A program made the position numbers and the translations under genes. From a virus (Duplodnaviria > Heunggongvirae > Uroviricota > Caudoviricetes), in IMG/VR virus record IMGVR_UViG_2698536657_000011: DNA of 6,325 bases, one strand, 5' to 3'. Positions 117 to 5,547 of the stretch are shown piece by piece; position 1 is the stretch's first letter; the number at the start of each line of letters is the position of its first letter. The notes under the pieces are model-generated. The model did not search any database. It was not told the origin of the DNA and worked only from the letters and a program-made list of their open reading frames with translations.

Positions 117-1124
117 CTAATCGATGGACAGTTTATGGACACTTTCAGCCAGCGGATTAAAGCTGATTGCATCCTGTAAAAAGTCCGGCGAAAAATGCGC
201 ATACGTCATCGTTTGTTGAATCGTGGCATGGCCCAGGATTCGTTGTAGCGTAACGATATTTCCGCCATTCATCATGAAATGTGTAGCGAATGTATGACGC
301 ATGACATGGGTGGCCTGCCCTTTCGGCAAGTCCGGCTTCACCTCCTGAAGGATCTCCCGAAATCTGAGGTAATCAGCCTGGTACAACAATCCGGTTCTGC
401 GGGTTTTAATTAACGCAAGTACCGCATCAGAAACGGGAACGGCGCGAGATTTTCCGTTCTTGGTGTTAAAGAACATCACGCGGTTACCTACAATATGTTC
501 CCCACGTAAACCAGCTGCTTCACCCCACCTTGCCCCCGTGGAAAGACACAGAATGGCAACACGCCGCGCATCTCCATCGAGTCGTTCAAGCAGTCGTTCA
601 ATCTCCTCATCTGAAAGAAAGGCCATCTCTGTGTTCCTGACTTTCAGCTTACGTATTCCCCGAACCGGGTTTTCGTTATGGAACACCTCACCCTCAATCA
701 GCGAGCTGAACATTGCAGACAAGGCACACAAATCGCGGTTAATGCTGGAAGGCATTAACCCGGCCTGTAATTTGTCGGACCGGTACCCGAGCATAAATTT
801 TCGCGTCATCTGACTGGCACGAGGATCACCCATCTCACGGTTTATCTTTTCCAGTCTGACCCTGTAGGTATCCCCGTAATCCTGGTTACGACCATCAAGC
901 AGCCACCAGGCCTCTATCAGTTCGGATAACCGACGCTGATCTGCTGGCTTAGCCTGCCATGGCTTATCATGAAAATTCTGCAAAACATACCTTTCAAACT
1001 CCTGCGCCTTTGACTTCAGGGTAAAAATCTTACGAATCCGCTTTCCTTCCGTCCCTTGTGGCCTTACATCAACCTTATAACGTCCGTCTTTGAGTTGCTT
1101 AATCGACATGATTAGCCCCTCCAA
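117..1124 (-). CDS. int: Phage tyrosine integrase (site-specific recombinase), P2-Int-like, 335 aa
   Basis: Full-length ORF with GGAGGGG Shine-Dalgarno 6 nt upstream of the ATG. Catalytic-region motifs of tyrosine recombinases are visible (LSTGARWGEA; HVMRHTFATHF; LGHATIQQTMTYAHF with the terminal Tyr). Length and N-terminus (MSIKQLKDGRYKVDVRP) match my recollection of P2-type integrases. Sits next to the repressor, as in P2. Confidence 0.9.
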   Translation of the reverse strand: MEGLIMSIKQLKDGRYKVDVRPQGTEGKRIRKIFTLKSKAQEFERYVLQNFHDKPWQAKPADQRRLSELIEAWWLLDGRNQDYGDTYRVRLEKINREMGDPRASQMTRKFMLGYRSDKLQAGLMPSSINRDLCALSAMFSSLIEGEVFHNENPVRGIRKLKVRNTEMAFLSDEEIERLLERLDGDARRVAILCLSTGARWGEAAGLRGEHIVGNRVMFFNTKNGKSRAVPVSDAVLALIKTRRTGLLYQADYLRFREILQEVKPDLPKGQATHVMRHTFATHFMMNGGNIVTLQRILGHATIQQTMTYAHFSPDFLQDAISFNPLAESVHKLSID

Positions 1125-1178: not shown

Positions 1179-1520
1179 TCAGCCAGCATTGCGGCCTGAT
1201 CGGGATGATTTTTGGGTAACGTCGATTGAAGCCAGATCGCCCTCCGACTGAGAAGATCCATCAAGAGAGAGAGCCGGGGCAATTTGCCCGGCGGCAGGTA
1301 GCGTCTTATCCTTTAACAGCCAAAACATATACTTTTCAAATCGATCTGCCTGAAGAACCGACTCCACGATTTTAGCTCTGGCGCTCTTTTGCCCTGATTC
1401 ATAATTCCTTACGGTGGCCAGAGATAACCCTGTAATTTCAGCAAATTGTTTTTGCGTTAAGCCCTCCGCCTTACGTATCTGGCGTAATTTTTCCGCGTAG
1501 TCTATTGACAAGATAACCAT
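1179..1520 (-). CDS. Immunity repressor, P2 C-like, with N-terminal XRE-type helix-turn-helix, 113 aa
   Basis: HTH signature (LTQKQFAEITGLSLATVRNYESGQ) near the N-terminus. Downstream segment FEKYMFWLL...AGQIAPAL resembles the P2 C repressor as I recall it. Co-oriented with and directly upstream of int, divergent from the rightward early genes. The only upstream Shine-Dalgarno candidate (GAGAGG) lies about 11 nt from the ATG, so the start is less certain than the ORF. Confidence 0.78.
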   Translation of the reverse strand: MVILSIDYAEKLRQIRKAEGLTQKQFAEITGLSLATVRNYESGQKSARAKIVESVLQADRFEKYMFWLLKDKTLPAAGQIAPALSLDGSSQSEGDLASIDVTQKSSRSGRNAG

Positions 1521-1623
1521 TTGAGTATTAACCTCTCGAAAAAGATAACCTTTCGATTATCTTCACAACCCAAAACAAACCTTCATAAGGTGCAATAGGC
1601 GCACCTGTGCGAGAGGATAACAA
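1505..1623. promoter_or_regulatory. Lysis-lysogeny switch region: rightward early promoter candidate (TTGACA 1505-1510, TATTAA 1526-1531, 15-bp spacer) with operator-like repeats AAGATAACC at 1510-1518 and 1542-1550 and an inverted partial copy TTATCTT at 1557-1563
   Basis: Read directly: perfect -35 hexamer, 4/6 -10 hexamer, two identical 9-mers 32 bp apart, and a palindrome AAGATAA-N8-TTATCTT. A further GATAAC lies at 1616-1621 within the Shine-Dalgarno region of the first early gene. Position between divergent repressor and early genes matches P2/186 switch architecture. The leftward promoter could not be placed confidently. Confidence 0.45.
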
Positions 1624-2148
1624 ATGCGGGACTTCATTGCCGATAAAGAGTTATCTGACACCGATCACACAACTGGAGCGGCGTACATCAACGCCAATAC
1701 CAGTCAACAAGAAGCAACAGATAACAACGACGAACAAAAGCCACAGCGCACATATAAAAAAGGGGCAACCCTGCGGCTGGATGGCCCAATAGCCGGGCTT
1801 TGCTCACTTGAAAAAGGGGCCGCCTACATCGGATTAACAAAAACAGCATTACGCGCAGCTCTTCAGCGTAACCAGATGCCAGGACATAAAACCCGCTCAA
1901 ACCCTGAAGATGAGAATTCGGATGGTGTTTGGTGGTTTAACGTCAGAGAGTGGGACAAGCTGGCCGACGAACTCCCGGAATGCGAGCCACCAGAATGGCA
2001 CAACTGGAAAAGCTACTGGACATACGACCGCCAGAAAAGAAAGTTTACCCCAGCTGATAAGGAAGATTGCCAGACCGTCAATGGAAAACGGGTTTACAAA
2101 GGCAGAAAGTCAAAGCTGGAACAGAGCCAGGATGTAAACGAACGGTGA
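1624..2148 (+). CDS. Cox/Apl-like excisionase/transcriptional regulator homologue, unusually long (174 aa) with N- and C-terminal extensions
   Basis: GAGAGGA Shine-Dalgarno 6 nt upstream of the ATG. First rightward gene after the repressor, the position Cox/Apl occupies. Central segment AAYIGLTKTALRAALQRNQMPGHK...GVWWFNVREWDKL resembles the HTH and wing of Cox/Apl proteins. Family assignment is by eye, not by search. Confidence 0.55.
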   Translation: MRDFIADKELSDTDHTTGAAYINANTSQQEATDNNDEQKPQRTYKKGATLRLDGPIAGLCSLEKGAAYIGLTKTALRAALQRNQMPGHKTRSNPEDENSDGVWWFNVREWDKLADELPECEPPEWHNWKSYWTYDRQKRKFTPADKEDCQTVNGKRVYKGRKSKLEQSQDVNER

Positions 2149-4997: not shown

Positions 4998-5114
4998 GAA
5001 ACCAGAACATGCACACACAAAAAAACCGCTTGCCATGCCGCAATCAGTCAGGTTACATTCCCGCTGCACCTCATAAAACGGGTGCCGGGATTTCCACCCC
5101 GCCGACTACAAGAG

Positions 5115-5145
5115 CGCACAACCGCGCCAGCGGTTTTTTTGTGCG
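5115..5145 (+). terminator. Putative Rho-independent terminator or attenuator: stem AACCGC/GCGGTT (5120-5125 / 5130-5135), loop GCCA, then a 7-T run (5134-5140); outer arms CGCACA/TGTGCG (5115-5120 / 5140-5145)
   Basis: Read directly. Lies about 120 nt downstream of the stop at 4997 and about 170 nt upstream of the next start. The GC stem is short, so strength is uncertain. Confidence 0.4.
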
Positions 5146-5261
5146 TACTGTATCGCCACGTCTTTTTCGCGTCAGAATAATGGCGGGGCGTACGGGGCCG
5201 ACTTCGGTCGGGCCGGGATCTCTTGTAGCCGGTTGTGGAAACCCTGTACGTCTCGCCACCC

Positions 5262-5292
5262 TGAGTTTTCCACCTCCGGATGGTGAGTTTTC
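5262..5292. repeat. Perfect 9-bp direct repeat TGAGTTTTC (5262-5270 and 5284-5292), spaced 22 bp, flanking a small palindrome CACC-TCCGGAT-GGTG
   Basis: Read directly. Two-helical-turn spacing immediately upstream of the gene at 5320 suggests a paired protein-binding site. Confidence 0.45.
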
Positions 5293-5319: not shown

Positions 5320-5547
5320 ATGGCAAACCGCAAACAACAGCGCGCCCGCGCTGAGCGTCTTCACACCCGGACTGAAATCAACCGCAGACTCTGGCGCGCA
5401 TCACGCGTCGCGCAAATCATGTACGTCAACATGCTGCATGAACACGCACACGCGCTGTCAGACCGTTACTGTGCCGCCGTCTTCAGCTACCTGGCGGATG
5501 ACCTGGCAGAACTGCAGGACCTTATCAACCAGCAACACCACCACTAA
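5320..5547 (+). CDS. Hypothetical basic protein, 75 aa, with C-terminal QQHHH
   Basis: AGAGG 9 nt upstream of the ATG. Preferred over the overlapping 206-aa track ORF (5009-5629), whose translation is Ser/Thr/Arg/Pro/Cys-rich and looks like an off-frame read of GC-rich DNA. Confidence 0.5.
   Translation: MANRKQQRARAERLHTRTEINRRLWRASRVAQIMYVNMLHEHAHALSDRYCAAVFSYLADDLAELQDLINQQHHH

Follow-up and report, generated by a model that had tools for sequence, protein, structure and literature searches.

The C repressors of phages P2, P2 Hy dis and Wphi are described as recognizing non-palindromic direct repeats (PMC1904268, PMC2995052). In Wphi, C recognizes two 10-bp half-sites that lie 34 bp apart and flank the -10 hexamer of the early promoter (Pe), and repression in vivo requires both half-sites (PMC1904268, PMC1904263). 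P2 C forms a symmetric dimer akin to palindrome-binding proteins, with structural likeness to P22 c2, 434 cI and C.Esp1396I; one dimer per repeat has been proposed, and five of its residues (Y31, T33, S35, Y36 and R41) have been put forward as base contacts (Massad et al., PMC2995052). The P2 C footprint consists of four protected patches (PMC1904263). Here we analyze a stretch of 6,325 nucleotides from a virus of the Caudoviricetes (IMG/VR record IMGVR_UViG_2698536657_000011; the whole stretch is referred to as the window), for which an initial annotation had proposed a repressor-controlled switch region. The window constitutes the left end of a prophage that is P2-like (Peduoviridae), and comparison of its sequence with relatives makes it likely that positions 1505-1563 comprise the Pe and the repressor operator of a P2-type C/Cox lysis-lysogeny switch. 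The switch region is real but ordinary, its kind being already known; its one notable aspect is a dyad-symmetric second operator (O2), together with a family-wide hint that such dyads are what C repressors read.

Repressor, probable operators and early promoter

A prophage adjoining dmsA in E. coli JNEC-KY174 is 99.9% identical to the window, and in UTI89 the equivalent prophage occupies the serS-dmsA interval. The features on which the analysis rests are as follows.

117-1109, minus strand: integrase gene int (open reading frame).
1179-1520, minus strand: immunity repressor gene of the P2 C family, 113 residues, HTH_3 (open reading frame, Pfam, PHROG, PDB, RefSeq).
1505-1510, plus strand: Pe -35 hexamer TTGACA (conservation; position as annotated in Wphi and P2).
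1510-1531, unstranded: first operator (O1), AAGATAACC-ATTT-GAGTATTAA; left arm (1510-1518) strong, right arm degenerate and overlapping the -10.
1529-1534, plus strand: preferred Pe -10 hexamer TAACCT (18-bp spacer; position-weight scan).
1532-1537, minus strand: repressor Shine-Dalgarno GAGAGG, 11 nt before the ATG (read from the sequence).
1542-1563, unstranded: O2, AAGATAACC-TTTC-GATTATCTT; 8 of 9 dyad pairs.
1624-2148, plus strand: cox-like gene, first of the early operon, 174 residues (Pfam Phage_Cox, PHROG, RefSeq).

The repressor matches Pfam HTH_3 (E 1.6e-10) and phrog_147 (E 1.9e-29), and among PDB structures it comes closest to P2 C (2xcj/2l49; E 5.6e-15, aligned residues 8-92). It is 53.5% identical to Wphi C (over residues 10-95) and 35.7% identical to P2 C, and corresponds to RefSeq coding sequence WP_062857815.1 in the 99.9% identical genome; NCBIfam holds no specific family for either the repressor or the Cox-like protein. 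With 113 residues, it is a small (about 100 residues), single-domain helix-turn-helix (HTH) repressor homologous to P2 C, and int and C lie on one strand facing a cox-type gene in a P2-like genome, as in P2-type switches. The initial annotation had assigned the region to this type of switch, an assignment borne out by the P2 C homologue and by the int-C/cox order in a Peduoviridae prophage.

The 9-mer AAGATAACC had been reported at 1510-1518 and 1542-1550, 32 bp start to start, as had the palindrome AAGATAA-N8-TTATCTT at 1542-1563, and both are confirmed. The repeat is longer than 9 nt, as the two copies align over 19 nt with 84% identity, and the sites are best read as two 22-bp units of the form 9-N4-9, with centres 32 bp apart, rather than as bare direct 9-mers. 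The inverted partial copy had been presented as a side feature; its presence stands, but it appears to be the right arm of the dyad-symmetric 22-mer O2. The dyad score of O2 (8/9 pairs) was reached by 0/300 and 0/500 shuffles of the O2 zone in two separate runs, and in the common 569R5/E. albertii type the site is perfect (AAAGATAACC-TTTT-GGTTATCTTT, 9/9 pairs). The left arms of O1 and O2 are identical, and their right arms agree at 5/9 positions; in other classes (L073, L076, L013, L102 and L068, among the relatives compared) both O1 arms match O2. A description as non-palindromic direct repeats thus suits the left arms alone and fails at O2. With 32 bp between them, the two sites lie on either side of the Pe -10, in line with the bracketing of the -10 at two to three turns seen in P2-type switches; the claim that two operator copies about three turns apart bracket the -10 describes an arrangement that has been shown experimentally for Wphi (PMC1904268, PMC1904263).

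With one mismatch allowed, the 9-mer has five matches in the window against 1.04 expected, and 0/200 shuffles reach five. Local chance expectations were obtained from 5000 dinucleotide shuffles of 1500-1625, of which 2.8% contain an exact direct repeat of at least 9 nt, 0.9% a 9-N4-9 dyad of at least 8/9 pairs, and 0.02% both together. The window sequence alone is only suggestive, and the case is carried by comparative evidence. One further copy, GAGATAACC at 1421-1429, falls within the repressor gene and was not accepted as an operator, since it codes there for the HTH residues G-L-S-L, which 569R5 specifies with other codons (AAGACAACC). Within the integrase gene, the operator arm occurs once with one mismatch, as AAGATAAAC at 840-848 on the minus strand. 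No further AAGATA-N10-TATCTT copies occur in 25 kb of the near-identical genome L002, so there is no sign of distal operators.

The -35 hexamer TTGACA is invariant in 7/7 aligned variants although nearby codons change, and it starts 47 of the 60 distinct promoter segments of the family, the others beginning with TTGACG/T or TTGAT. TTGACA at 1505-1510 and TATTAA at 1526-1531 are both present as the initial annotation had it, and the -35 stands; the description as a near-consensus promoter was overstated with regard to the TATTAA partner, which would leave a spacer of 15 bp. In a position-weight scan, which recovers the annotated -10 hexamers of Wphi and P2, TAACCT (N18) scores 3.6 bits against 0.3 bits for TATTAA. 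An 18-bp spacer gives the best score in 51/60 distinct family promoters, and TTGACA/N18/TAACCT is the top plus-strand promoter match in 1480-1660. L040, L057 and L073 keep TAAYCT at N18 and have lost TATTAA. The Pe -10 is therefore more probably TAACCT than TATTAA. Transcription from Pe is predicted to start at about 1541-1542, which would place O2 at about +1 to +22 and O1 at about -32 to -11. Another plus-strand promoter candidate, at 1562-1591 (TTCACA/N18/TAAGGT), was rejected, being without conservation in 569R5. The -35 and the first operator copy do fall within the first codons of the repressor gene, as had been noted, with the -35 over codons 4-6 and the first repeat over codons 1-4 (open reading frame start 1520). 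In most relatives, a CCTC block equivalent to the repressor Shine-Dalgarno follows the -10.

Co-variation of operators and repressor

The comparison set comprised sister prophages on the same scaffold, drawn from E. coli genomes and IMG/VR contigs. Switches with operators of the window type occur in 285 of 5,426 complete E. coli genomes, ST131 strains among them, and 11 of these 285 reach at least 95% identity. Sister prophages of STEC17-183, U12A, ETEC1734, C325 and UTI89 carry a repressor 65% identical to that of the window. In these prophages, the CTTCACC class, GTTCACC at O1 and CTTCACC-N4-GGTGAAG at O2 occupy the same alignment columns as the GATAACC arms in the window. The contact positions proposed for P2 C correspond to L34, T36, R38, N39 and Q44 of the window repressor, whose recognition helix reads S33-LATVRNYE-41, plus Q44. 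Helix 3 is SVGTIGNYE...Y in the CTTCACC class versus SLATVRNYE...Q in the window, so that three of the five predicted base-contact positions differ (V34, G38 and Y44).

Within the AAGATA group, to which the window belongs, four of the five predicted contact positions are identical throughout; the fifth, T36, is Ala in L024/L025 and in KY208/L037-39, and the operator arms show no matching change. The outer AAGATA...TATCTT is constant within the group. The inner triplet of O2 changes in both arms together in KY208/L037-38, from ACC/GGT to CTC/GAG (GATACTC...GAGTATC), and a mixed form, ATC in the left arm and GAG in the right, occurs in L039. The N4 at the centre of O2 varies freely and is found as TTTC, TTTT, GTAC, ATTT, GTTT, GCAC, GTGC and GTAT.

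A natural swap separates the influence of the repressor from that of Cox. Between 569R5 (AAGATAACC operators) and U12A (CTTCACC operators), Cox is identical at 172/173 residues and the flanks are ~100% identical, and identity falls to 35-75% only across a cassette of ~300 bp (L001 4180-4478 versus L005), which ends at most 12 bp past O2. In the window this corresponds to the following interval.

1279-1576, unstranded: immunity cassette, repressor codons 1-80 with Pe, O1 and O2 (limits inferred by comparison).

The last 33 repressor residues are identical between 569R5 and U12A. Conversely, Cox is only 75% identical between the window and 569R5, yet operator arms and predicted base-contact residues are shared. 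The 569R5/U12A swap argues that the operator motif follows the repressor HTH, not Cox, and the cassette looks as though specificity had been exchanged as a module, through recombination inside the repressor gene and immediately past O2. The view that the repeats define a candidate immunity specificity is upheld in that the arms co-vary with the repressor and swap with the HTH cassette; the outer arm bases (AAGATA) and the recognition helix would together set this specificity.

These comparisons also bear on two sites proposed elsewhere in the region. The initial annotation had counted a GATAAC in the cox Shine-Dalgarno as a further operator. The motif is present at 1616-1621, just 5' of the cox ATG (1624), but it is unchanged in the CTTCACC class and is present, too, in a relative from Serratia whose operator is different again, and an operator role is not supported. 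GTTATCT at 1650-1656 was likewise rejected as a class-specific operator, being unchanged between classes.

Assignment to an immunity group had been suggested as a check. Repressors within one class are at least 95% identical and share the same spacer and operators (PMC3448106). The UTI89 prophage PhiECO5 forms the tentative class IX, whose operators are not described in the same paper (Nilsson et al. 2011, PMC3448106). The window repressor is 65% identical to that of UTI89 (WP_000247830.1) and the operator arms differ, which places it outside class IX. By these comparisons, in which classes I-VII were not included, the window repressor is a new sister specificity beside PhiECO5. Classes I-VII were reportedly defined by Karlsson et al. 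in 2006.

The repressor group of the window has at least three N-terminal codons more than Wphi and P2 C, and these are the O1 left arm read in frame. Codons 2-4 thus encode V-I-L in the window, V-N-M in class IX and S-I-L in L040, and the N-termini read MVIL, MVNM and MSIL, respectively, with MNTM in Cedecea. In Wphi and P2 C, the start codon overlaps the -35 (TTGACAT). Class IX retains a second in-frame ATG at the P2-like position, which leaves the true repressor start uncertain.

Dyad symmetry across the family and alternative readings

For a family-wide test, 76 distinct switch sequences collected by genome and IMG/VR scans were anchored on the -35, and the best 9-N4-9 dyad downstream was taken from each. 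Mis-anchored rows (L029, L033, L042, L068 and L073; L008, L024 and L011) were read by eye, so the family counts are conservative. An O2 dyad of at least 8/9 pairs is present in 15 of 50 distinct repressor HTH types versus 0.28 expected from shuffles (~50-fold), and one of at least 7/9 pairs in 23 of 50 versus 3.2 expected. Across the family, a copy corresponding to O1 usually lies 30-33 bp upstream of O2, often with both arms recognizable. In L073, for instance, AAGGTATCA-ACAG-TGATACCTT and AAGGTACCC-ACAG-TGATACTAA are 32 bp apart, and similar pairs are found in L076, L013, L089, L102 and L068. The Pseudomonas relatives L018-L020 (P. soli, P. brassicae and a Pseudomonas metagenome-assembled genome) carry a pair of clean inverted repeats, TGTTCC-N8-GGAACA, at a distance of 22-23 bp; the pair directly follows a TTGACT/TTGATT -35 and represents a fully palindromic version of the layout.

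We regard it as quite possible, though somewhat less than probable, that C-family repressors in general read dyad operators of ~22 bp, a single symmetric dimer binding each of two sites that are separated by about three turns. In that case, what has been described as 'direct repeats' in P2, P2 Hy dis and Wphi would represent those arms of degenerate dyads that are better conserved, the other O1 arm being degenerate because it is constrained by the Pe -10, and the O2 palindrome may in addition be a hairpin in the repressor mRNA leader. The weak O2 symmetry in Wphi and P2 fits the published direct repeats, the symmetric-dimer puzzle (PMC2995052) and the four-patch footprint (PMC1904263). A literature search returned no description of a dyad-symmetric O2 or of dyad-reading C repressors, the paper on classes I-VII lying outside its coverage.

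What the sequence and its comparison show are the two sites with their symmetry, the way these co-vary with the repressor, and the hexamers of the promoter; from this we infer the following course of repression. In a lysogen, the 113-residue C, as a symmetric HTH dimer like P2 C, would occupy the two 22-bp sites three helical turns apart, with one dimer per site, probably cooperatively and with bending of the DNA. The dimer at O1 would occupy the spacer together with the upstream portion of the -10, that at O2 would cover about +1 to +22, and both would exclude or trap RNA polymerase at Pe. Blocking of Pe would silence cox and the early operon, and would also relieve the leftward repressor promoter (Pc) of head-on interference; Pc is expected somewhere between O2 and the first cox codons. 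As the repressor Shine-Dalgarno is situated to the right of the Pe -10, the repressor mRNA would start to the right of 1538 and Pc would face Pe, with some overlap of the Pe and Pc transcripts expected. Two candidates for Pc are as follows.

1614-1643, minus strand: candidate Pc, option 1, TCGGCA (1643-1638), N18, TATCCT (1619-1614); conserved in the window, 569R5 and U12A.
1618-1623, minus strand: candidate Pc, option 2, -35 TTGTTA (1623-1618); position as in Wphi.

Option 1 ranks with the best matches on the minus strand, and its -10 is the complement of the cox Shine-Dalgarno; the Pc of Wphi is annotated as abutting the cox ATG. Minus-strand candidates with a -10 in O2 (TTGTGA/N15/TATCTT and ATGAAG/N19/GATAAT) were rejected, as they are missing from the CTTCACC class.

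Other explanations of the repeats have been weighed against repressor binding to two dyad sites. The published view for the C proteins of P2, P2 Hy dis and Wphi (PMC1904268, PMC2995052) would have two bare 9-bp direct-repeat half-sites, as in P2, with the inverted copy incidental, TATTAA as the -10 and an extra operator in the cox Shine-Dalgarno. The direct copies in the window are indeed perfect (9/9), and the O1 right arm is poor (4/9 dyad pairs), both as this view would have it. It is nevertheless unlikely: the inverted O2 arm co-varies with the direct arms, both between classes and within the AAGATA group, dyad O2 sites are enriched in the family to the degree given above, the GATAAC of the cox Shine-Dalgarno is constant between classes, and TATTAA combines a 15-bp spacer with loss in the three relatives that keep TAAYCT at N18. 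That the O2 palindrome acts mainly as RNA, through a hairpin in the repressor leader or the early transcript that affects stability, translation or termination, and is not a repressor site, we consider improbable. The minus-strand RNA of 1536-1570 does fold (-9.8 kcal/mol, z -2.9) into a hairpin of 10 bp that has a GAAA loop and precedes a UUUUU run, and its 569R5 equivalent folds at -14.8 kcal/mol (z -5.9). Right-arm G-to-A variants give G.U pairs on the minus-strand RNA only, and pairing-preserving changes on both arms are also predicted by an RNA stem. However, such a role would leave unexplained the extra arm copy at O1 in the core promoter and the tracking of the repressor recognition helix by the arm sequence; the U-run is missing in 569R5 and in the class-IX type, and the plus-strand RNA folds weakly (-3.5 kcal/mol, z -1.4). 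A secondary RNA role of the palindrome is possible. The minus-strand hairpin is terminator-like and lies just upstream of the repressor Shine-Dalgarno.

It appears most improbable that the repeats are sites of another phage or host protein (Cox, arm-type sites of Int, or integration host factor) or arose by chance in AT-rich DNA. Cox of P2 and Apl of 186 bind direct repeats in this intergenic region (PMC3936717, PMC7498355), and the window statistics alone are moderate, given the 2.8% and 0.9% of shuffles noted above. Against a different protein, the operators of 569R5 and U12A are wholly different although Cox and the integrase-side flank are the same but for one Cox residue, and the motif tracks the HTH domain of C; chance is excluded by the same geometry in dozens of independent specificities.

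Several observations weigh against repressor binding to two dyads at Pe as proposed here. A consensus promoter/terminator scan of 1350-1750 with 16-18 nt spacers found nothing, and the promoter assignment rests instead on the position-weight scan and on conservation within the family. Whether TAACCT or TATTAA is taken, the -10 is weak. Both Pc candidates are weak consensus matches, and Pc was not located. At O1, with its right arm at 4/9 dyad pairs, a dimer on a dyad is weakly supported in the window class. Measured between their centres, the conserved outer AAGATA blocks lie 16 bp from each other, which is long for a compact HTH dimer, so that a strong DNA bend would be needed. The O2 of Wphi has 5/9 dyad pairs, and in P2 the best dyad of the scan zone is not significant and lies away from the annotated O2. 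Finally, as O2 also forms a leftward RNA hairpin, symmetric arm changes alone are no proof of protein binding.

Neighbouring elements and described systems

The cox-like protein, at 174 residues about twice the size of P2 Cox, scores 27.4 bits with Pfam Phage_Cox (cut-off 27.5), over residues 59-130 only, matches phrog_23196 (E 2.8e-95) and phrog_1831, and is named 'Cox family DNA-binding protein' in RefSeq. Its residues 13-45 are acidic and strongly diverged between the window and 569R5, the remainder being ~85% identical. A further element lies between O2 and cox.

1564-1613, unstranded: class-independent conserved block with candidate Cox-binding repeats (conserved despite different repressors and operators).

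The block consists of ~10-bp periodic CAnAAC/ACAAACC units, with CACAACC, ACAAACC and CATAAGG within 1564-1600; relatives have tandem AAAACAAACC units in the block, and L025 has one extra 10-bp unit. P2 Cox and 186 Apl are known to bind direct repeats in the corresponding region (PMC7498355, PMC3936717). By analogy with them, and because the block is conserved regardless of repressor class, these units are candidate Cox-binding repeats.

Beyond the cox-like gene, small early genes follow in the window, and the downstream part of the genome that is 99.9% identical has a replication endonuclease, Ogr/Delta, portal and terminase. Among the rightward early genes, a 64-residue open reading frame at 2564-2758 runs on the opposite strand (minus; RefSeq hypothetical WP_044188229.1); it matches nothing in Pfam or PHROG, and the annotations of 569R5 and UTI89 also include a reverse open reading frame equivalent to it. 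Further to the right, isrK (5066-5140, plus strand; Rfam 63.9 bits, gathering score 50) and a C4 antisense RNA (5176-5263, plus strand; 78.6 bits, gathering score 45) lie back to back. Just 3' of them, a 75-residue open reading frame (5320-5547, plus strand) matches the Pfam 'Derepression protein family' (PF25738, 29.5 bits), and its product carries the RefSeq name 'derepression protein'. In P1 and P7, an antirepressor is controlled by c4 RNA. The prophage may thus carry an RNA-controlled anti-repressor module against C-type repressors which, if so, would bear on the flipping of the switch.

With these results, a specific operator sequence and a promoter can be assigned to one type of P2-like prophage; the general picture of phage switches is unchanged. 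Prophages of the AAGATA group are predicted to be homoimmune with the window, and those of the CTTCACC group, class IX, heteroimmune. Exchange of the ~300-bp cassette would create a new immunity specificity by swapping only the HTH domain and its two operators. The O2 dyad and its recurrence in the family bear on the open question of how a symmetric P2 C dimer is reconciled with non-palindromic direct repeats, and the 22-bp O2 is a well-defined substrate for binding and structural work. Should C repressors prove to read dyads in general, the near-perfect O2 of this prophage group would be a natural substrate for the question of C-dimer recognition.

Among the described systems, coliphage 186 is P2-like and has convergent lytic and lysogenic promoters, with CI bound to inverted repeats at pR (PMC1904263). 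The 186 CI is a two-domain protein of ~190 residues that forms wheels of dimers, in a system with cII and distal operators, whereas the window repressor is of the C type, with 113 residues and one HTH domain, and the first 13 kb of the prophage hold no second palindrome; the switch is thus not of the 186 CI type. The layout of O2 is the dyad used by palindrome-binding HTH dimers, and C.Esp1396I likewise places one dimer on each of two adjacent sites. P22 c2, 434 cI and C.Esp1396I have, however, no close sequence relationship to the window repressor. The window operators are longer (22 bp) than those of palindrome binders, with their conserved bases at the outer ends and a strongly asymmetric O1, and the sites are spaced by 32 bp as opposed to 15 bp for C.Esp1396I.

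With P2, the window shares the repressor fold and family, the gene order, two sites that bracket the Pe -10, and probably also the face-to-face placement of Pe and Pc. The P2 repeats are 8 bp long (GTTTAGAT), 22 bp apart and non-palindromic, in contrast to the inverted repeat at the second site of the window and its 32-bp spacing. PhiECO5 resembles the window in its serS/dmsA integration site, its scaffold, the 32 bp between O1 and O2, and an O2 of the form 9-N4-9. Its repressor is the CTTCACC-class protein of UTI89 and differs from that of the window in the contact residues and sequence identity given above, and its arms are CTTCACC, not GATAACC; as repressor contacts and operator arms differ, PhiECO5 is expected to be heteroimmune.

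Wphi has the closest characterized repressor. As in the window, its TTGACA -35 lies at the repressor start, the first operator copy falls between -35 and -10 and the second past the transcription start, and its promoters are convergent, as proposed for the window (PMC1904263, PMC1904268). The operators differ in sequence (TATTGGTGAC in Wphi, AAGATAACC in the window), in the spacing of the copies (34 bp versus 32 bp) and in O2 symmetry, which amounts to 8-9/9 pairs in the window group. The promoter spacer is 17 bp in Wphi and 18 bp in the window, and Cox has ~90 residues as opposed to 174. Finally, the -35 of Wphi abuts the C start codon, whereas the window gene is 10 nt longer, with O1 encoding residues 2-4 of the repressor.

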